NCBI GenBank assembly: GCA_035512055.1
Contig: DATKEP010000064.1
Span: 720 to 64,719 of the forward strand
Source of the DNA: Rhizomicrobium sp.
GTDB lineage: Bacteria; Pseudomonadota; Alphaproteobacteria; Micropepsales; Micropepsaceae
DNA: 64,000 nucleotides
Direction of reading: 5' to 3'
Numbering within the stretch: the stretch's first letter is position 1; each line of letters begins with the position of its first letter. The notes beneath the pieces were generated by a model. The model was given only the letters and a program-made list of their open reading frames with translations. It had not been told where the DNA came from and did not search any database. This document shows, piece after piece, positions 12,878-39,649 of this stretch. The position numbers and the translations under genes were made by a program.

Positions 12878-12959
12878 TGTCATTCCCGCGCACGCGGGAA
12901 TCTAACTTCGTCCTGAGTGCGATAGCTGAAGTTGGATGCCCGCGTTCGCGGGTATGACA
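12878..12959. repeat. REP-like palindromic element, copy 2
   Basis: tgtcattcccgcgcacgcgggaatct...tggatgcccgcgttcgcgggtatgaca, with internal aacttc/gaagtt inverted repeat. Confidence 0.85.
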
Positions 12960-19715: not shown

Positions 19716-19760
19716 TCATGCCCGCGATTGATTGGCATTCCCGCATGCGCGGGCATGACA
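19716..19760. repeat. REP-like palindromic element, shortened copy 3
   Basis: tcatgcccgcg...ttcccgcatgcgcgggcatgaca. Confidence 0.7.
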
Positions 19761-19763
19761 ATT

Positions 19764-20483
19764 CTACTTTGATCGGGATTTCGCCCAGTCCGCGAACATC
19801 GGAAAATTTGATAGCGCTTCCTTGGCCTTGGCCTTGAACTTCTCGAACTGCATTACATTCTCGATGCGGGCTGCGAGGAATTCCTCGGTAGGCTTTTCAT
19901 CCTCGCTGGTGTCATTAAACCAGCGCATGGCGGTCGTGCCGTAAACGCCGGCCAATATTCCGCGCTTGGTGTAGAAATTGAAATCGGTCGAGGTATCGCC
20001 GGCTGCCCGCCACATCGCATCCACTGTGTGATAGACCAGCCTTGCACCCAGCGCCGCATGCATGGGCAAGGACAATAGCGCGGCCGCGCGGCGGGCCGCT
20101 TCCTTGTGGGGCTTCAGGATGGCGAACCGCGTCTTGACCGCGGTGGCGATGCGCTCGCGGATCTTCATCGTCTTCAGGTCCATCGCCGCCAGCCGATTTT
20201 CCATCTCCGCATCGGTATGGGTGGAATAGAATTCCACCAGGCCGATGGGCCCTCCCTCGAACAGCCGAGCCAGATCAACCTTTGTCGCGCCGGCCTCCTC
20301 GCCCGCCTTCTGCAGAACCTTGTCGGTAAAGCCATCAAAGGCGGCGTGCGGCAGCGCCTTGGCGAGGACCCTTTCGCGCATCTCCTGGTCTGTCATCGCT
20401 TTGGCCCTTGTCCCGGTCTTTTGCTTTGGCTCGACCTTCTTTGCGGGCTTCCTGCTGGCGGACTTTTTGGCAGCCTCGGTCAT
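19764..20483 (-). CDS. COQ9 family (ubiquinone biosynthesis) protein
   Basis: AAFDGFT, VDAMWRAAGDTSTDFNFYTKR, RIENVMQFEK; start at ATG 20483. Confidence 0.92.
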   Translation of the reverse strand: MTEAAKKSASRKPAKKVEPKQKTGTRAKAMTDQEMRERVLAKALPHAAFDGFTDKVLQKAGEEAGATKVDLARLFEGGPIGLVEFYSTHTDAEMENRLAAMDLKTMKIRERIATAVKTRFAILKPHKEAARRAAALLSLPMHAALGARLVYHTVDAMWRAAGDTSTDFNFYTKRGILAGVYGTTAMRWFNDTSEDEKPTEEFLAARIENVMQFEKFKAKAKEALSNFPMFADWAKSRSK

Positions 20484-31572: not shown

Positions 31573-31908
31573 ATGAAAAAGAGCCTTGCCGTGACCTTTT
31601 GCCTGCTGCTTGCAGGCTGCTCCGAAGCCGACTGGAACCATGCGCTGAATTACACCGGCATGGGTGGGGACGAGGATTCCGCCACCCAAGCAGGCGCCTC
31701 TGCGGTCGCACCCAAGTCGGCGACCATCTCAGCGACCACGTCAACCGCCGCAGCCGCGCCCGAAGCGCCTGCACAAGCCGTCCCCAACAGCGATATCTGC
31801 CGCGCGGTGGCCACGCAGGACGCCACGTCCAACGATTTCGATCCGGCGACGCAAGCGCGCGTCTTTGCGCGCAGTTTTTCGCAGTGCGTCGCTATCTACT
31901 CACGCTGA
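31573..31908 (+). CDS. Small hypothetical lipoprotein
   Basis: MKKSLAVTFCLLLAGC lipobox; Ala/Thr linker; Cys pair in the C-terminal domain. Confidence 0.7.
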   Translation: MKKSLAVTFCLLLAGCSEADWNHALNYTGMGGDEDSATQAGASAVAPKSATISATTSTAAAAPEAPAQAVPNSDICRAVATQDATSNDFDPATQARVFARSFSQCVAIYSR

Positions 31909-33001
31909 ACCGAAATTCCGTGACCTGGTGATACTCCGTGTCCTGCCGCAGCAGGGCGCTTGGAAATGACGGAATGTTCGGCGCATTGGGAAAGGCCTGC
32001 GCTTCCAGCGCGACGGCGCTATGGATCTGATAGCCCTTGATCAGCGCCACACTCGGCGGCGCGTAATTGGCGCTATAGACCTGAACTCCGGCTTGGGTGG
32101 TCCATTCTTCAAGCCTGCGTCCCGATTTCGGATCATCCAGCCGCGCCGCCAGCCGCAAGGTGCCGGGTTTGCCGTTGATTGCGAAATTCTGGTCGAAGCC
32201 ATGGGCGCGCTGGATGGCGGGATCGGGATCGTTGATGTGGGCGCCGATCGCTGTGGGGCGGCGGAAGTCGAAGGCGGTGCCGGCGACGTTTCGCATTTCG
32301 CCGGTCGGCACATTCTTTTCGTCAACCGCGGTGATCTGATCGGCATTCACCGTCAGGAGCTGGTCAAGCACCGGACCTGACGCATCACCCGCCATGTTGA
32401 AATAGGAATGATTGGTGAGGCTGATGATCGTGTCCTTGTCGCTGACCGCGCGATAGGCGATGCGTAAGCTATTGTTGCGCGTGAGGGTATAGGTCACGCT
32501 TACATGCAGCGTGCCCGGAAACCCCATGGTGCCGTTGCGATCGCGCAGGGACAGAACCAACTGCGGCTCCACGCCATCCTTGGGGGCTGCGTCCCAGACC
32601 CGCTCGTCATAGGGCTTGTTTTCGGCCTCGTTCAGCACATAAGCATCGCGTGCCACCCGATACTCGATGTGGTTGATCTGGTAGCTGTTGTCCTTGATGC
32701 GGTTGGCGAAGCGGCCGATGGTGGCGCCGTAGCGGCCCTTGTAATCCAGGCTGGTATAGTCGGCCAGGCGGTCGAAGCCCTGCACGACGTCGGCCAGCTT
32801 GCCGTCGCGTCCGGGCACGCGGATGGCGGTAATGATCGCACCATAATTGGTGATACTGGCTTGTACGCCATTGGCGTTTGTCAATGTGAACAGGTCTACG
32901 CCCTTGCCGGCAACCCCGCCCCAGGCCGTGACAGTGATATTGGCCTCGGCCGGCAGCGTTATTGCGAGCCACGCAGCGGCGGCGAAGCAGACAAATCTCA
33001 T
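31892..33001 (-). CDS. galM: Aldose 1-epimerase family protein with signal peptide (copy 1, divergent)
   Basis: ITNYGA, GATIGRFANRI, GFPG, TNHSYFN, GFDQNF, ALEAQAFPNAPN; start at ATG 33001. Confidence 0.88.
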   Translation of the reverse strand: MRFVCFAAAAWLAITLPAEANITVTAWGGVAGKGVDLFTLTNANGVQASITNYGAIITAIRVPGRDGKLADVVQGFDRLADYTSLDYKGRYGATIGRFANRIKDNSYQINHIEYRVARDAYVLNEAENKPYDERVWDAAPKDGVEPQLVLSLRDRNGTMGFPGTLHVSVTYTLTRNNSLRIAYRAVSDKDTIISLTNHSYFNMAGDASGPVLDQLLTVNADQITAVDEKNVPTGEMRNVAGTAFDFRRPTAIGAHINDPDPAIQRAHGFDQNFAINGKPGTLRLAARLDDPKSGRRLEEWTTQAGVQVYSANYAPPSVALIKGYQIHSAVALEAQAFPNAPNIPSFPSALLRQDTEYHQVTEFRFSVSR

Positions 33002-33189
33002 GAATCCCTCCAAAGAATGGCGAGCGTACAAAGCGATTCCAGCCTGCGCCATATCACGCCCGCCATATTGCGCACGCGAAGTGGATGTTGCTTGACCTTT
33101 GCGTGCAGCTGACGTTTGACCAAGCGATGCACGCCTGATTATCTGTCGCCACGGTCGCCGGTGAGCCGACCGAGGGAGAGGAAATTCCA

Positions 33190-34212
33190 ATGAAAAATCT
33201 GCTGTTTTCGGCCGCGCTGGTCGCGGCTGTCGGGTTCGGCACGGTTGCGGCTTTCAGTCAGGCGAATGAGGATGAAGTCGCCGCCCGCCAGGCGAAATAT
33301 CCGCTGGCGGCCAAGGCGGGCCAAGACAGCCACGCCTTCGACCAGGCGCCGGCCGGCGCGACCAACCAGGGCAAGTTTGACGACAAGACCTGGAAATTCG
33401 GTCACGCCTGGGATGCGCCGCCGGGGTCCAAGATATGGAACCCGGTCAAGATCAAGATGATGCGGGGCGGCATGGTCACGGGCGGCACGGTATTCTCTGC
33501 CACCGATCCGGAAACCTATTGCGCGATGGCCAATGCCGGTTACGACTTCATCTGGACCGAGCATCAGCATGACGCGCGGGACTGGAAGACCACGCAGCAC
33601 ATGTGGGCAGCTTGCCCCTATGCCAAGGCGGTGCCGGGCGTGCGCGTGGCCTATACCGACGAGCGCGAAGAACAGCATGCGCTGGACGCAGGCGCGCTGG
33701 TGCTGGTGGTGCCCACGGTGCGTTCTTATGAAGAAGCCATCAGAGCGCGCGACTGGGCCTATTTCCCGCCGCTCGGACGGCGCAGCAATGGCGGCGGCCA
33801 GGCCTTTGCTCTCTACAACAATGTGCCGGGCGGCTATCGCAATACCATCAACGACAATCTGGTCCTGGTCCTGATGATCGAGACCCTGGCGGGCCTGAAG
33901 GATGCCGACCGCATCGCCAAGATTCCCGGTGTCACCGCGGTGTTCGCGGCCTCTGGCGATCTGGGCAATCATTCCGGCTACAAGCAGAACGATCCCGACT
34001 ATGAACGCGAGATCAACATCGTCCATGACGCCGCCATCAAGGCGGGCGTGCGGCTGTGCGGGCCTTATGCCTGGCGCGACCGACCCGATTTCACCTGTTT
34101 CCAGGCGGGCAGCGAAGGCGGTGCTATCGCACGCGGCGTGAAGGACGAACTGGGCAAGGACTGGAACACCCAGCCGGTCCCCGAAGTCGGCCCCTGGGCG
34201 AAAACGAAGTAA
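33190..34212 (+). CDS. HpcH/HpaI aldolase family protein with Sec signal peptide
   Basis: GYDFIWTEHQH, GVRV, ALDAGA, YFPPLGRRS, MIET, ASGDL. Confidence 0.85.
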   Translation: MKNLLFSAALVAAVGFGTVAAFSQANEDEVAARQAKYPLAAKAGQDSHAFDQAPAGATNQGKFDDKTWKFGHAWDAPPGSKIWNPVKIKMMRGGMVTGGTVFSATDPETYCAMANAGYDFIWTEHQHDARDWKTTQHMWAACPYAKAVPGVRVAYTDEREEQHALDAGALVLVVPTVRSYEEAIRARDWAYFPPLGRRSNGGGQAFALYNNVPGGYRNTINDNLVLVLMIETLAGLKDADRIAKIPGVTAVFAASGDLGNHSGYKQNDPDYEREINIVHDAAIKAGVRLCGPYAWRDRPDFTCFQAGSEGGAIARGVKDELGKDWNTQPVPEVGPWAKTK

Positions 34213-34730: not shown

Positions 34731-35843
34731 CTACTTGGCGGTCGAAAAACGGAACTCCGTCTTCTGATAGAAGATCTGTCCCGGCTTCAGCTCGGTGGTC
34801 GGGAAGGCGGGAATATTCGGCGCATTGGCGAAATGCTGGGTCTCCAGGCAGAAGGCGCCACGCTTGATATATTGCGCGCCGCCCTTGCCGATAATCGGCT
34901 TCTCATTGTTGGGCAGATAAAGCTGGATGCCCGGCTGGGTGGTCCACACGTCCATTACCCGGCCTGACGTCGGTTCCACCACATGGGCGGCGGGGCGAAG
35001 CTTGCCCATGACTCCTCGCACGATGAAGTTGATGTCATAGCCCGGCGTGGCCACGATCGCCGGATCGGGCCCGTTAATGTCCTTGCCGATGGCTTTCGGC
35101 TTGGTGAAGTCAAAGCCGGTGCCCGCCACTTTCATCACTTCGCCGGTCGCCATGTGATTGGCGTCGGTCGGTGTCACCGCATCGGAGAAGACCTGCAGGC
35201 GATGGTTCAGCACGTCGCCATTGCCCGCGCCTTTCAAGTTGAAATAGGAATGGTTGGTGGGATTGAGCACCGTCGGCTTGTCGGTCGTGGCGCGGTATTC
35301 GATGTTGAGCGAATTGTTGGCCGTGAGGGTATAGATCACGGTGAAATCCAGATTGCCGGGATAGCCCTGGTCGCCGTCAGGCGAGACTATGTGCAGGATC
35401 AGGGACGGCGAAGGCCCGTCCAGCGGGGTGGCGCTGTAGACGTGATAGGAAAAGCCGATCGGGCCGCCATGGATGTTGTTTGGCCCTGCATTGGCCTTGA
35501 GGTGATAGGTCTTGCCTTCCAGCGTGAACTGGGCGCCGCCGATACGGTTGGCGAAGCGGCCGATCACCGCGCCATAGGTCGTGCCCGTCTTGTAGCCGTC
35601 GAGCGCGTCATAGCCGAGCACGACATCTGCCAATTTGCCGTCGCGGTCGGGCACATTCAGGCTGACCAGATAGGCGCCGTAATTGGTGATGCGTACGCTC
35701 ATGCCATGGGAGTTGGTCAGGGTGTAGATGTCCACCGCCTGATGATCGGCGGTTTCGCCCCAGGGCGCCTTGTCGATTTTCGCCTCGGCCGGCAACGCGG
35801 CCAGAAGGCCCGCGCTTACAAGCGCGGCGGCAAAGGATTTCAT
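34731..35843 (-). CDS. galM: Aldose 1-epimerase (mutarotase) with signal peptide (copy 2)
   Basis: GAVIGRFANRI, NNIHGG, NPTNHSYFNL, GYDINF, FCLETQHF; start at ATG 35843. Confidence 0.93.
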   Translation of the reverse strand: MKSFAAALVSAGLLAALPAEAKIDKAPWGETADHQAVDIYTLTNSHGMSVRITNYGAYLVSLNVPDRDGKLADVVLGYDALDGYKTGTTYGAVIGRFANRIGGAQFTLEGKTYHLKANAGPNNIHGGPIGFSYHVYSATPLDGPSPSLILHIVSPDGDQGYPGNLDFTVIYTLTANNSLNIEYRATTDKPTVLNPTNHSYFNLKGAGNGDVLNHRLQVFSDAVTPTDANHMATGEVMKVAGTGFDFTKPKAIGKDINGPDPAIVATPGYDINFIVRGVMGKLRPAAHVVEPTSGRVMDVWTTQPGIQLYLPNNEKPIIGKGGAQYIKRGAFCLETQHFANAPNIPAFPTTELKPGQIFYQKTEFRFSTAK

Positions 35844-36061
35844 GGCATTTCCCAAGTTTTTCTATTGCGCGCGGGAGGTTAGCGGCTGGTTCCCGGGCTG
35901 AACAGGCCGAAATGTATGGCCTAACTGCCCCGCATTCCTCAAAGGGAATGGGCCAGGCCGGCTATGAACAGCAGGCCCGCGGTCGGCACTTCGCAGGGCC
36001 TTCGGGTTTACCATCCGGCGCGGATATTGTGTCCGGGATGTCATTTTTCGTTCATCTCAAA

Positions 36062-36089
36062 TTGCGCCCTAAGGCGTTTCTGCTACATT
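36062..36089 (+). promoter_or_regulatory. Putative sigma70-type promoter (TTGCGC-N16-TACATT)
   Basis: ttgcgc 36062-36067, gctacatt 36082-36089; resembles the Caulobacter housekeeping consensus; no ORF follows. Confidence 0.45.
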
Positions 36090-36095
36090 TTGCGA

Positions 36096-36610
36096 CAGGT
36101 TTGGAATCTTCGGTAAGACCCCGGAAGGCTCCAGGCTTGGGAGAGGGAGCGGCTTAGTCTGCTCCCGATCCTCCCCTCCTTCGCGGCGCGATGAGTTTGG
36201 GCCGAGCCCATCAGGTGCACCGTGTGAACCGGCAGCACACGGAGCATTGAGTCAGCCTGCTGAGTTTTGGACCGGTTATCCGCCCTCACAAGAAAGACAA
36301 CCGGCCCGGTCCTCCGGGTACTCGCTGGCGACTCCGGTTACGGAGTCCGCTGGGGGCCTTCTAAGGGTCCCTGGCCTCGCCCGATACGAACCGTATCAAT
36401 CGAGCTGAAATTCCGATTTGTTCGGTCCGTCATTCGCTGATTGCGAAAATCGCAAGACCATCAACAGCACTAAAATTACAACCAAAGTCTTTCAGGCGAC
36501 CTTAAGTGACCCTGTGTAAACATCTGTCCTCCCCCGGATTCTCCCTCTAACCCTGGGGGCTCCAACATTGGGCTCGGAAGGCATAGGACCCTTCCGGGCC
36601 CTTCTTTTTT
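36096..36610 (+). ncRNA. Candidate large structured non-coding RNA (family not identified)
   Basis: Putative promoter upstream, about ten consecutive hairpins (most need G-U pairs valid only on +), 12-bp terminator with U-tract at the 3' end, no credible + strand ORF. Confidence 0.45.
36570..36610 (+). terminator. Intrinsic terminator with no upstream + strand CDS
   Basis: gggctcggaagg (36570-36581) / ccttccgggccc (36590-36601) + ttctttttt. Confidence 0.75.
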
Positions 36611-36898
36611 CCGAACTCTTAAGCAGGCCGGTGTCAACATCCTGCCGCCCCAAGCCCCGCCAAACCCTAGGCCAGGGGCAGTTACCAATGGGCCCGAAGG
36701 CTGGGGCTGGCCTTCGGGCTCTTGCTTTAATCGCAAGCCCATCAACACAACCATCGCATGTATTTCTCCCACGCTGCCCCTCTCCGGGTGATTCGGCCCG
36801 GTTCTGCTTATTCAACCATACCACCGCCTAGCTCGGGGTGATTATATACTTGACAAATAACTTGCCCCTAACTAGCTTTGTGATCAAGGAGATTGGTC

Positions 36899-37504
36899 AT
36901 GAGCATTTTAGACGTAACATTCTTTCAAGCCGAAGAAGCGGCATATTCCAAGCTGGAAAGTGTACTTTGGCCCAAGGGCACAGAATGCCCTCATTGTGGC
37001 GTGGTCGGCACTGGCGTGAAGATCAATGCCAACCCCGAAAAGAAGGTCCGCTACGGCCTCTGGAAGTGCGGTGACTGCAAAAAGCAGTTCACGGTGACGG
37101 TGGGCACGGTTTTCGAGTCTAGCCATATCCCGCTGCATAAGTGGCTACAGGCCGCCTATCTGCTCAATTCCAGCAAGAAGGGCATCAGCGCCAAGCAGAT
37201 CGAACGCACCGTGCAGGTCACATACAAATCGGCTTGGTTCATGATGCACCGTTTGCGCGAGGCTATGGCCCCGGCTGGCAAGTTGCCCCCGATGGGCGGC
37301 GAAGGTCGCGTAATCGAAGCCGACGAAACCTTTATGGGCAAGCGCGACGGCAAGCCTTCTGAGCCCGACACATTCGTTTCCGGCTTTGGCTGGGTTGAGC
37401 ATCCCCGCATCGAAACGCAGCGCAAGATTGTCGCCTTGGCGGAACGCGGCGGTTCTGCTCGCTGTTTCGTGGTGGATAGGAACTGCAAGACAGACCACCA
37501 ATGA
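36899..37504 (+). pseudogene. IS1595-family (ISXO2-like) transposase, C-terminally truncated
   Basis: Zn ribbon CPHCG...WKCGDC, QFTVTVGTVFESSHIPLHKWLQA, KGISAKQ, TYKSAWFMMHRLREAM, IEADETFMG; stops at ~200 aa; a KRRSHADLIG remnant near 37546-37575 resembles the usual KRLTY C-terminus. Confidence 0.85.
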
Positions 37505-37599
37505 GCAAATAACGGTCCTGCGACAAACCGCTCTCATCCGTGAAAGCGGCGTAGTCACGCAGACTTGATCGGTCGTTATGAAACGGAAGGCCCACCGAA

Positions 37600-37758
37600 A
37601 TGCCCGTTAGCAAACAGCCCAGAAAAGCGCCACTGGCTAAGGCTAGTCAAATCAGGCGATTCAAGGAGGCCGCACGCGAACTTGAATGCGACGAATCTGA
37701 AAAGGCATTCGACAAGATGCTACGGAAGCTGGCTAAGGCAGAGAAGCCCGCCAAATAA
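37600..37758 (+). CDS. Small (52 aa) ORF following the IS1595 transposase
   Basis: MPVSKQPRKAPLAKASQIRRFKEAARELECDESEKAFDKMLRKLAKAEKPAK; below the ORF-track cutoff; I recall this FKEAARELECDE type downstream of alphaproteobacterial IS1595 transposases (not verified). Confidence 0.65.
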   Translation: MPVSKQPRKAPLAKASQIRRFKEAARELECDESEKAFDKMLRKLAKAEKPAK

Positions 37759-37767
37759 ATGGCCGAG

Positions 37768-37959
37768 TCAGGGCGGTTTGCGGCGGGAAGCCTGGTATCC
37801 AGAAGCCCCCATCAGTGGAGAGGCTTTGGCTAATTCCCTGTAGCCCTCTGCGATGGCCGACCAGCTTTCCTTGAGGTGTTTGCCTTCGGATTGATTGGCT
37901 ATCGCATCGGCCTCTTTGGCCTTGGTCAGATACCATTCTGCCGTGTTGGTCTTGACCAC
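37768..37959 (-). CDS. Small hypothetical passenger protein (63 aa)
   Basis: Amphipathic helical AEWYLTKAKEADAIA...KESWSAIAEGYRELA; lies inside the IS. Confidence 0.55.
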   Translation of the reverse strand: MVKTNTAEWYLTKAKEADAIANQSEGKHLKESWSAIAEGYRELAKASPLMGASGYQASRRKPP

Positions 37960-37971
37960 AGGGGCGCCCGA

Positions 37972-38172
37972 TCACGTGTCCAGCGTCTTCAGCAATTTCT
38001 GCCGTCGGGCGATGATTTCTGCCGCCTCGATCCAAGCCGCATAAGCTTGTGTCTGCCCTCTTTCCTTGTACTTGAGCGCATATTTTCTGGCCTCGACTTC
38101 CGCTTCGATGCCGTATGTGGCGATCATGGACGTGGCCAGAGCCTTCGGGTCGTCGGTCAAATCGCCCCCCAA
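37972..38172 (-). CDS. Small hypothetical passenger protein (66 aa)
   Basis: ALATSMIATYGIEAEVEARKYA...YAAWIEAAEII; tandem with 37768-37959; start uncertain. Confidence 0.55.
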   Translation of the reverse strand: MGGDLTDDPKALATSMIATYGIEAEVEARKYALKYKERGQTQAYAAWIEAAEIIARRQKLLKTLDT

Positions 38173-38411
38173 TGTTTATGCCGTAATCCCCTATCTCTAC
38201 TGGTTCGCTACATCTTGCGACAATTACAAAAAGGAAAGGCCCAGAAGTCTCTCCAACTTCCGGGCCTTCCCATCGATATTCCCCCCAACGGGGTCTGCTG
38301 GGGAGGACCAAATGTTTATAGGAGCCGCATTAACAGGCTCATACCGTCCCGAATCAGAGGGAATTTGCCCCCTATTTGCAAAGTATATAATCGCCTACCT
38401 TGGGGTGATCC

Positions 38412-38426
38412 GAACATCCGTGGAAC
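38412..38426. promoter_or_regulatory. Alphaproteobacterial LexA box (GAAC-N7-GAAC)
   Basis: GAAC-atccgtg-GAAC upstream of recA. Confidence 0.75.
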
Positions 38427-38480
38427 AACATCTTGTATAATTATTACATATCAGCACGTTACTCAGTATCTTGCCAATGA

Positions 38481-38495
38481 GAACAAACAGTGTAC
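38481..38495. promoter_or_regulatory. LexA box variant (GAAC-N7-GTAC)
   Basis: GAAC-aaacagt-GTAC, 75 bp upstream of the recA ATG. Confidence 0.7.
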
Positions 38496-38569
38496 ATTCT
38501 TCCCATCACACCGATGCTGGATTCGCTTGGGGATCGGCGGGCGCTGTGGAATAACCGAGGGAGTTTGGC

Positions 38570-39649
38570 ATGTCACAGGCGGCTTTGCGGGTAGTGGGCA
38601 AGGAACAGAATAACGATCGCAAGCGCGCACTCGAGGCCGCGCTCAGCCAGATCGACCGGGCGTTCGGCAAGGGCTCAGTCATGAAGCTGGGCAGCCGTGA
38701 TCTTGGCCTGGCAACCGATGCGGTCTCCACCGGCTCGCTGGGGCTCGACATCGCTCTGGGCATTGGGGGGCTGCCACGCGGCCGCGTTGTCGAAATCTAC
38801 GGCCCGGAATCTTCGGGCAAGACCACCCTGGCCCTGCATGTGGTGGCGGAGATCCAGAAGAAAGGCGGCACCGCCGCCTATGTGGACGCCGAACATGCGC
38901 TCGACCCAGTCTATGCCAAGAAGCTGGGCGTGGATATTGACGAGTTGCTGATCTCCCAGCCGGACACCGGAGAACAGGCACTGGAGATCACCGACACGCT
39001 GGTGCGCTCCGGCGGTGTCGACATCGTGGTGGTGGATTCGGTTGCCGCGCTGACACCCAAGGCCGAACTCGAAGGCGAAATGGGCGATCAGCTGCCAGGT
39101 CTTCAGGCACGTCTGATGAGCCAGGCGCTGCGCAAGCTCACCGGTTCGATCTCCAAGTCCAACACCATCGTGATCTTCATCAACCAGATCCGCATGAAGA
39201 TCGGCGTCATGTTCGGCAATCCTGAAACCACCAGTGGCGGCAATGCCCTGAAATTCTATGCTTCCGTGCGACTCGATATCCGCCGTATCGGCGCCATCAA
39301 GGATCGCGACGAAGTGGTGGGCAACCAGACACGCGTGAAGGTGGTCAAGAACAAGGTGGCCCCGCCCTTCAAGCAGGTCGAGTTCGACATCATGTATGGC
39401 CATGGCGTGTCCAAAACCGGCGAGCTTATCGACTTGGGAGTGAAGGCTGGCATCGTTGAGAAGTCGGGCTCCTGGTACTCCTTCGACGGTTCGCGCATCG
39501 GCCAGGGCCGCGAGGCCGCCAAGACCTTCCTGGCCGAGAACACCGACATCGCCGACAAGATCGAAAATGCCATCCGCGCCAATGCCGGCCAGATCGGACA
39601 GAATCTGGTACTGGACGCCTCCGAAAAGGGCGAGGCGGAAGAAGAATAG
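38570..39649 (+). CDS. recA: Recombinase RecA
   Basis: [51 protein letters not shown]. Confidence 0.99.

Follow-up and report, generated by a model that had tools for sequence, protein, structure and literature searches.

Between an aldose 1-epimerase gene and recA, the window (the whole 64,000-nucleotide stretch of Rhizomicrobium sp. DNA analysed here) carries a conserved core of seven hairpins at 36225-36405, which is now known in at least eight copies, that of the window included, all from Rhizomicrobium-like soil bacteria. We hold with moderate confidence that this stretch, whose homology reaches from about 36215 to 36500, belongs to a conserved, structured and non-coding kind of passenger carried by an IS1595-family transposon and is present here as an orphan; we would class the core as a candidate structured RNA that is new, narrow in distribution and associated with mobile elements. 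An initial annotation had described positions 36096-36610 as an unrecognised structured non-coding element, and this description was borne out by the absence of any Rfam match or coding signal and by pair conservation and covariation across eight copies. For the further description as a large ncRNA or ribozyme-like element we found no support, the conserved part being about 180 nt (at most about 280 nt) of consecutive local hairpins. The candidate had also been said to abut an IS1595 relic; it is indeed linked to a mobile element, but it lies inside an older decayed IS1595-family element rather than merely next to a relic. If transcribed, the core would found a structured RNA family not described before and, to judge from our literature search, the first tied to IS1595 DDE transposons; this search returned nothing on RNAs of IS1595 elements.

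Layers of inserted material upstream of recA

The 2.7-kb spacer that holds the candidate is bounded by the aldose 1-epimerase gene (34731-35855, minus strand, Pfam Aldose_epim) and by recA (38570-39649, plus strand), which is followed by alaS, and its G+C content is 50-57%, compared with about 62% in the surroundings. A paralogous aldose 1-epimerase gene is present at 31892-33190, also on the minus strand; the two paralogues are 2.8 kb apart, have blocks of DNA that are 71-84% identical, and are separated by an HpcH/HpaI-like ORF and an 85-aa ORF. A scan of species-representative genomes with the epimerase yielded 36 loci, mostly from Rhizomicrobium-like MAGs, in about 26 of which the epimerase gene and recA lie next to each other in divergent orientation, separated by 0.25-4.7 kb. 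The closest relatives, whose epimerase is 92-94% identical, do not possess the candidate, and the DNA that they have in common with the window is confined to about 135 nt by the epimerase gene and about 200 nt by recA, apart from one further block in L002. Therefore, the sequence from about 35990 to 36590 of the window is inserted material. A regulatory leader of the epimerase was rejected as the identity of the core, in that these relatives keep the epimerase and about 135-420 nt upstream of it without the core.

Native intergenic sequence remains beside the epimerase gene at 35856-35990, where nhmmer and blastn found matches in loci L002, L003, L005 and L020; the epimerase-side block is about 420 nt long in these loci, and the window retains about 135 nt of it. 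Homology to the core-less relatives ends at about 35990, which marks the left junction of the inserted material. The following sequence (35991-36224) has no detectable relative, holds promoter-like hexamers (36063-36090) and a long 5' hairpin (36096-36139), and lies outside the conserved element. A 16-nt word, GCTACATTTTGCGACA (36082-36097), which overlaps the -10 hexamer and start site of the initial annotation, is repeated at 38207-38222 in a younger IS as GCTACATCTTGCGACA, and a second short repeat shows similar spacing (35994-36007 and 38137-38150). These two short repeats hint that 35990-36100 may have been derived from a related element.

Downstream of the core, homology to L006 continues on the plus strand through a 3' extension (36406-36499), delimited by the nhmmer alignment, which reaches 36499, and by comparison of right ends. 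The extension contains a variable hairpin, which can be drawn as TTCGC/GCGAA at 36433-36447 or as TTGCGA/TCGCAA at 36441-36455, together with CATCAACA, and it is closed by TTTCAGGCGA (36490-36499), the truncated start of the right-end sequence, which reads TGTCAGGTGATTCG in L006. The next stretch (36500-36721, plus strand) is material of another layer and holds two terminator-like hairpins; positions 36500-36589 have no relative in any locus, and 36590-36729 have a counterpart in L002 only, where it stands directly before an IS right end. Neither nhmmer nor tblastn found a match to 35990-36225 or 36495-36590 in any locus, and no relic of the small ORF described below was found there.

Repeats, nhmmer and flank comparison reveal another right end of an IS1595-family element, a decayed one, at 36722-36836 on the plus strand. 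Its first part (36722-36747) duplicates the block of the hairpin and CATCAACA and is 85% identical to 36441-36466; it then contains GGGTGATTCGGCCCGGTTCTGCTTATTCAACCATACCACCGCC (about 36786-36828), the consensus being ..GGTGATTCGTACC..TTTGCTTACTCAAGTATATAATCGCC, and ends with the 8-mer TAGCTCGG (36829-36836). In addition, nhmmer matched positions 574-665 of L063 to 36728-36828 of the window. The younger IS1595-family element (36837-38395, plus strand) is itself a relic, with inverted repeats at 36837-36859 and 38373-38395 that are 87% complementary, a truncated transposase (36899-37504) reduced to the zinc ribbon (Pfam Zn_ribbon_IS1595) and three small ORFs, and it shows 72-75% nucleotide identity to elements in L005, L006 and L013. 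The 8-mer that follows it, TACCTTGG (38396-38403), agrees with the left 8-mer TAGCTCGG at 6 of 8 positions. From 38396 to 38569 extends the recA upstream region on the plus strand, which is common to all relatives and gave nhmmer matches in 25 of them. The window thus reads as a stack made up of an old relic holding the candidate, a second decayed right end and the younger IS relic.

This layering bears directly on the proposal that 36096-36610 is an independent ncRNA gene of about 515 nt, transcribed from the plus strand between a promoter and an intrinsic terminator of its own and possibly ribozyme-like, which we now consider extremely unlikely. Every stem listed for it was found in the sequence at its place, and on either strand the fold of the 515 nt was better than that of dinucleotide-shuffled sequences (z = -3.69 on the plus strand and -3.28 on the minus strand). 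The proposed promoter, TTGCGC-N16-TACATT (36063-36090), is present as well, but it fails a standard sigma-70 scan, which reported 0 promoter-like sites; its first hexamer has 3 of 6 matches, and it is absent from all homologues. The proposed terminator is terminator-like in the window, where a strong plus-strand hairpin (36570-36601) is followed by TTCTTTTTT and a T-run to 36610 (a second terminator-like hairpin lies at 36690-36721), but it is located beyond the truncated right end of the core-bearing element, in sequence of different origin. Neither it nor the promoter nor the long 5' hairpin, which had been counted as part of the RNA, has a counterpart in the seven other copies or in about 35 related loci, whereas homology and covariation are limited to 36225-36405 according to the covariance model and to about 36215-36500 according to nhmmer. 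The closest relatives are without the whole stretch, and no large-RNA family of Rfam matches it. The promoter, 5' hairpin and terminator are private to the window and stem from different layers of the decayed IS stack, so that the proposed 515-nt transcription unit is a join across these layers. For annotation this is a caution, an apparent 515-nt RNA gene with promoter and terminator being a collage of successive insertions.

Conservation and covariation of the core

Searches for known RNAs and proteins were negative. No model of Rfam 15, including group I and II introns, GOLLD, ROOL, HEARO, OLE, raiA and alphaproteobacterial sRNAs, matched the window at the gathering score, and ARAGORN detected no tRNA or tmRNA in the window or in ten homologous loci, in agreement with the earlier statement that the element lacks the hallmarks of RNase P, tmRNA, SRP and 6S RNA. 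A permissive Rfam search of the candidate region returned nothing up to E = 10 apart from two chance miRNA matches, and a search over the core in seven homologous loci gave nothing at E values up to 1. As the initial annotation had noted, there is no credible ORF, no ORF of the region having a Pfam match. The public sequencing runs that contain the stretch are all soil metagenomes and represent close relatives at low depth; within the candidate, these relatives differ by indels of 1, 2 and 4 nt, which means that nothing in it is read as protein. A decayed protein gene, or the pseudogene of a protein passenger, was rejected on the same grounds, namely the absence of a Pfam match and indels that are not multiples of three.

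The first homologue, in L006, was a weak nhmmer match (E = 1e-10) to 36223-36499 of the window, with compensatory changes in several hairpins, and nhmmer found the core in L006, L040, L063, L161 and L158. When metagenome contigs were scanned for the exact pattern of the two invariant H3 halves, at least two true copies (L040 and L063) were recovered, the remaining hits being mostly coding sequence or chance matches; contigs encoding homologues of the small ORF yielded L161, L158/L159 and L168. Further copies of the core probably exist. The H3 pattern had no match in viral contigs, and an origin of the core from a plasmid or phage was rejected for want of any DNA or protein match.

To describe the structure, seven local hairpins were assigned by hand. 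H1 is formed by 36220-36226 and 36236-36242, H2 spans about 36249-36265, H3, the most conserved in sequence, pairs 36272-36280 with 36296-36304 (CCGGTTATC with GACAACCGG), and H4 is formed by 36305-36309 and 36314-36318; these are followed by H5 (36330-36336/36341-36347), H6 (36349-36360/36364-36375) and H7 (36383-36388/36392-36397). A covariance model built on these hairpins with L040 and L006 as the only seed sequences, the window being excluded (model R1), found the window at 36225-36405 on the plus strand with 85.5 bits (E about 4e-25). It also recovered L063, L161 and later L168 (76 bits); about 35 further related loci gave no match, and the window gave one copy only. When six copies were used to build a new model (R2), the window scored 156 bits, and L158 and L015 were added.

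Pair statistics were computed on five-, six- and eight-copy versions of the alignment. Counted over local hairpins only, in eight related sequences whose alignment was fitted to the model structure, 90.8% of cells were occupied by standard pairs, compared with 30-50% when the 3' partners were slid by 1-3 columns. Both sides had changed in 25 of 44 pairs, as opposed to 4-9 in the slid controls, and none of 500 column shuffles of the eight-copy alignment reached the observed pair values. Compensatory pair conservation thus goes beyond the controls, as is generally expected of a structured RNA. The eight copies come from one narrow clade and one genomic site, and several of the pair changes may have been inherited rather than independent. 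Watson-Crick pairs dominate (255 of 303 cells).

Most of the covariation falls in H5, H6 and H7, in which the stem sequence changes almost completely and pairing is kept. The stem of H7, for instance, reads GATACG/CGTATC in the window but CTACG/CGTAG in L006 and AGCCCGGC/GCCGGGCT in L168. H3, in turn, keeps its sequence, that of a 9-bp inverted repeat whose spacer is fixed at 15 nt, and its one clean double change, from T-A to C-G, occurs in L161 and L158. Five of the seven stems vary freely in sequence and yet stay paired, from which we infer that the constraint acts on the folding of a single strand, most simply of an RNA. The form of H3 counts against an RNA, as an inverted repeat with a fixed spacer also fits a DNA operator for a dimeric protein.

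The carrier transposon, its cargo slot and its target site

In L006, the stretch that matches the core is located inside a 2.95-kb element with terminal inverted repeats and an 8-bp target duplication. The transposase of this element is intact, with the domains DDE_Tnp_IS1595 (PF12762, 5e-33) and zinc ribbon (PF12760), and the same families were found in L158; related elements measure 3.2 kb in L005 and 2.3 kb in L013. Repeats beginning GGnnATTATATACTTGA... are present at both element ends in L005, L006, L013, L158 and the window, and the flanking 8-mers are identical in the first four of these and agree at 6/8 positions in the window. With transposase, inverted repeats and 8-bp duplication all observed, the carrier is an IS1595-family insertion sequence.

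The transposase and the right-end sequence are common to these elements, as is a small, lysine-rich ORF that lies on the opposite strand; the cargo varies. Every copy of the core occupies one slot, between the small ORF, which reads leftward, and the right inverted repeat. In sister elements, the same slot holds a gene for a protein of 100-189 aa on the recA-orientation strand, which overlaps the small ORF divergently, the two starting at a common CATG (1126-1653 in L160, 299-817 in L169, the 139-aa ORF of L013 and JGI contigs of P0008 and P0012). Several of these slot proteins possess an R-N-x3-H motif, and one gave a sub-threshold HepT/HEPN match (E = 0.05); PADLOC reported nothing for them. 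Other parts of the elements carry further cargo, among it DUF6731, NYN and SocA_Panacea proteins. An origin of the core from a slot protein was rejected, in that tblastn with five slot proteins against all cores hit only a spurious ORF of L168 (100 aa) that is the core itself. Homology to a frameshifted protein gene, which according to the initial annotation would speak against an RNA, was thus not found with either Pfam or the slot proteins.

The small ORF encodes a lysine-rich protein of 45-72 aa (...DAWPKFEKLVKSAAKMGPKPH...) and lies beside the right end of every intact element. It is found at 1365-1514 of L006 (plus strand of that locus), with homologues in L005, L013, L040, L063 and L158-L169, and is absent from the window. 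Substitutions among 11 distinct copies numbered 77, 30 and 477 at the first, second and third codon positions, and this strong third-position bias marks the ORF as a true coding sequence. Its protein has no Pfam or PADLOC match and was represented by only 14 clusters in a database of 5.8 billion proteins.

Two further sequences were noted in these elements. On a distant branch, the slot contains a tRNA-like sequence with a 30-nt insert, which lies on the recA-orientation strand and not in the core (438-536 of L165, minus strand; also in L163, L164 and L166). It scored 25 bits with the Rfam tRNA model, for which the gathering score is 29, was negative with ARAGORN, and has TGGCGTACCCGC in common with the 5' side of H5 of the core. 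The second is a palindromic motif, GYAATWWWWATTRC (GCACTAAAATTACAA in the window, 36467-36481), located 25-45 nt inboard of the right inverted repeat. All element copies have it, in one orientation or the other and irrespective of whether they carry the core (for example L006, L013, L015 and L161), and it is probably a protein-binding site of the element end.

The right end of the IS is situated 172-175 nt upstream of the recA ATG in eight copies (174 nt in the window, where the ATG is at 38570), about 16 nt upstream of GAAC-N7-GAAC (38412-38426 in the window), a sequence which we take to have the form of an alphaproteobacterial SOS box. In the window, L006, L158 and L005, an older right end, now decayed, stands before the intact or younger IS, together with the 8-mer that also follows the new element. 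Repeated insertion at one site was observed in the window (36722-38403) and in L006, L158, L005, L013, L040, L063, L168 and L002; the insertion 8-mers differ between lineages and agree within each. Such strict choice of a single site is unusual for a cut-and-paste DDE element. The core is not needed for transposition or targeting, as sister elements that lack it also insert at this recA site. What these loci present is a classical cut-and-paste IS that returns to one position near the recA SOS box and swaps its cargo there, protein genes in some copies and an RNA-like module in others.

Repeated insertion at the recA site leaves stacks consisting of a decayed old end, an 8-mer, the new copy and the 8-mer again. 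The core of the window belongs to the oldest layer, from which the transposase, the small ORF and the right end that once went with it are gone. Relics nevertheless keep the core paired despite badly eroded IS ends, with 38 of 43 pairs retained in the window and 31 of 36 in L015, which suggests either selection independent of mobility or too little time for decay.

Strand, expression and possible function of the core

The initial annotation had doubted the strand of the RNA, and rightly so, as the indicators of strand disagree. All four copies compared folded better than shuffled sequences, and in each the z-score was better on the plus strand (-4.1, -3.5, -3.8 and -3.6, against -3.3, -2.8, -2.7 and -1.7 on the minus strand). 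G.U cells outnumbered A.C cells on the plus strand by 20 to 8, a count that is biased by the fitting of the alignment on that strand. The slot protein genes and the tRNA-like sequence of L163-L166 also lie on the plus strand. The consensus folding energies are about equal (-29.4 kcal/mol on the plus strand and -30.9 on the minus strand), H3 pairs better on the minus strand, and the core is directly upstream of the leftward small ORF. On balance, we lean to the plus strand, which has a moderately high share of our belief, while the minus strand has a considerably smaller one and a slight remainder is left for a role at the DNA level or no function.

With regard to expression, the sigma-70 scan found no promoter in the window or L006, a search by eye of both strands gave nothing convincing, and no terminator is conserved across copies on either strand. 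The combination of promoter and terminator conserved together with the RNA, as in an independent sRNA gene, was accordingly not observed. None of the public RNA runs contained the candidate stretch, and three metatranscriptomes covered recA only. In the scenario that we favour, that of a passenger RNA, transcription would most likely come from the plus strand, starting in the divergent control region that it would have in common with the small ORF, as in the case of the slot protein genes, and would run toward the right end without a conserved terminator. The copy in the window is probably not expressed from its original promoter. We would guess that the core serves as an alternative, non-protein cargo, a stable structured RNA that benefits the element or its host. 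A role outside transposition itself is suggested because core-less sisters use the same site and two relics without transposase keep the core folded.

It is also possible, although we think it unlikely, that the core is read from the minus strand as the long structured 5' leader of the small ORF and downstream cargo genes, starting near or inside the right inverted repeat, reading inward and acting in cis on translation or stability; as an account of function, such a leader is nearly as good as our guess of a passenger RNA. The small ORF is real, strongly constrained and leftward, and the core is immediately upstream of it in every intact copy. Furthermore, only on the minus strand does H3 become a perfect 12-bp stem with G.U pairs, and the variants of the window and L006 are wobble-compatible there only; the consensus energy is marginally lower on this strand, and CTGACA-N18-TGTAAT can be read by eye on the minus strand of L006 near the right end. 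However, the promoter scan finds nothing there, the z-scores are weaker on the minus strand in 4/4 copies, and the A.C cells are fewer than the G.U cells. Nor does the ORF need this leader, since in core-less copies a slot protein gene directly adjoins its start codon. The window and L015, moreover, keep a folded core even though the small ORF is gone or truncated.

Some of the same features could arise if the hairpins acted as DNA, as inverted repeats or structures at the right end of the transposon that are bound by, for instance, a host factor, the transposase or the small basic protein, or if they were functionless hairpin-rich IS debris, which we regard as improbable. The fixed-spacer inverted repeat of H3, whose single double change is symmetric as in an operator, the presence of GYAATWWWWATTRC as a second palindrome near the right end of all copies, and the dominance of Watson-Crick pairs, owing to which both strands fold equally, would all be compatible with this, and the region is a graveyard of IS relics. 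Yet the stems of H5-H7 change almost completely and still pair, which is not how protein-binding palindromes evolve, and neutral debris would not keep 91% pairing. Core-less sister elements reach this target site as well, and we know of no need of DDE transposons for subterminal hairpins. We consider it highly improbable that the core is a functional RNA partner of the IS1595-family transposon or of its small basic protein, for instance in directing or licensing insertion at the recA site, or in coupling the element to the SOS-controlled recA promoter through transcription out of the right end; if so, it would be the first case of a structured RNA dedicated to a DDE-type element of the IS1595 family.

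RNAs hidden at IS ends can be central to the function of the element, as recent studies of TnpB, IscB and IS110 have demonstrated, and given these precedents a conserved RNA in another IS family merits attention. Like the omega-RNAs and right-end RNAs of IS200/IS605 elements (TnpB, IscB; HEARO in Rfam), the core is structured, lies inside an IS near one end and, if read from the plus strand, points out through that end without a terminator of its own, and the insertion site is very specific. In contrast to those systems, there is no TnpB or IscB gene here, the transposase is of the DDE type, target duplications are 8 bp long, Rfam is negative, and the core is not needed for targeting. The bridge and seek RNAs of IS110 and IS1111 are likewise multi-stem RNAs encoded by an IS with strict target choice, but they adjoin a DEDD recombinase gene, their loops pair with target and donor DNA, and the enzyme class of IS1595 differs. 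In an informal check of the H3 loop (CAAGAA) as a guide, it complemented the 8-mer TTCTTGGA in L063 but did not track the target in L006, L040 or L168, and the idea was rejected.

RNA-OUT of IS10 and the 5' leader of IS200 are small structured IS-borne RNAs that act on the element's own genes, and a minus-strand leader would be of this kind; they act, however, at the start of the transposase gene, whereas the core is at the opposite end, 1.5-2 kb away, much longer and optional. The core resembles the orphan 'motif' families of Rfam in its conserved covarying hairpins, narrow range, link with mobile DNA and lack of a known function, but it matches none of the 4227 Rfam models at the gathering score or at E up to 1-10 and is known from few copies, at least eight. 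With hairpin repeats of the REP or MITE type it has in common that GC-rich intergenic hairpins stand beside IS remnants. It differs from them in being single-copy in the window and in every locus, in its length of 180-280 nt, in its seven different covarying stems and in having no terminal repeats of its own, and a REP or MITE repeat was rejected, with neither a repeat search nor the covariance model detecting a second copy in the window.

As a separate observation, the window contains a palindromic repeat of about 32 nt, TGnCATTCCCGCGCAnGCGGGAATCnAAnTTC, in three copies (183-214, 12878-12909 and 19733-19764). It is unrelated to the core and looks like a REP-type intergenic repeat of this genome.
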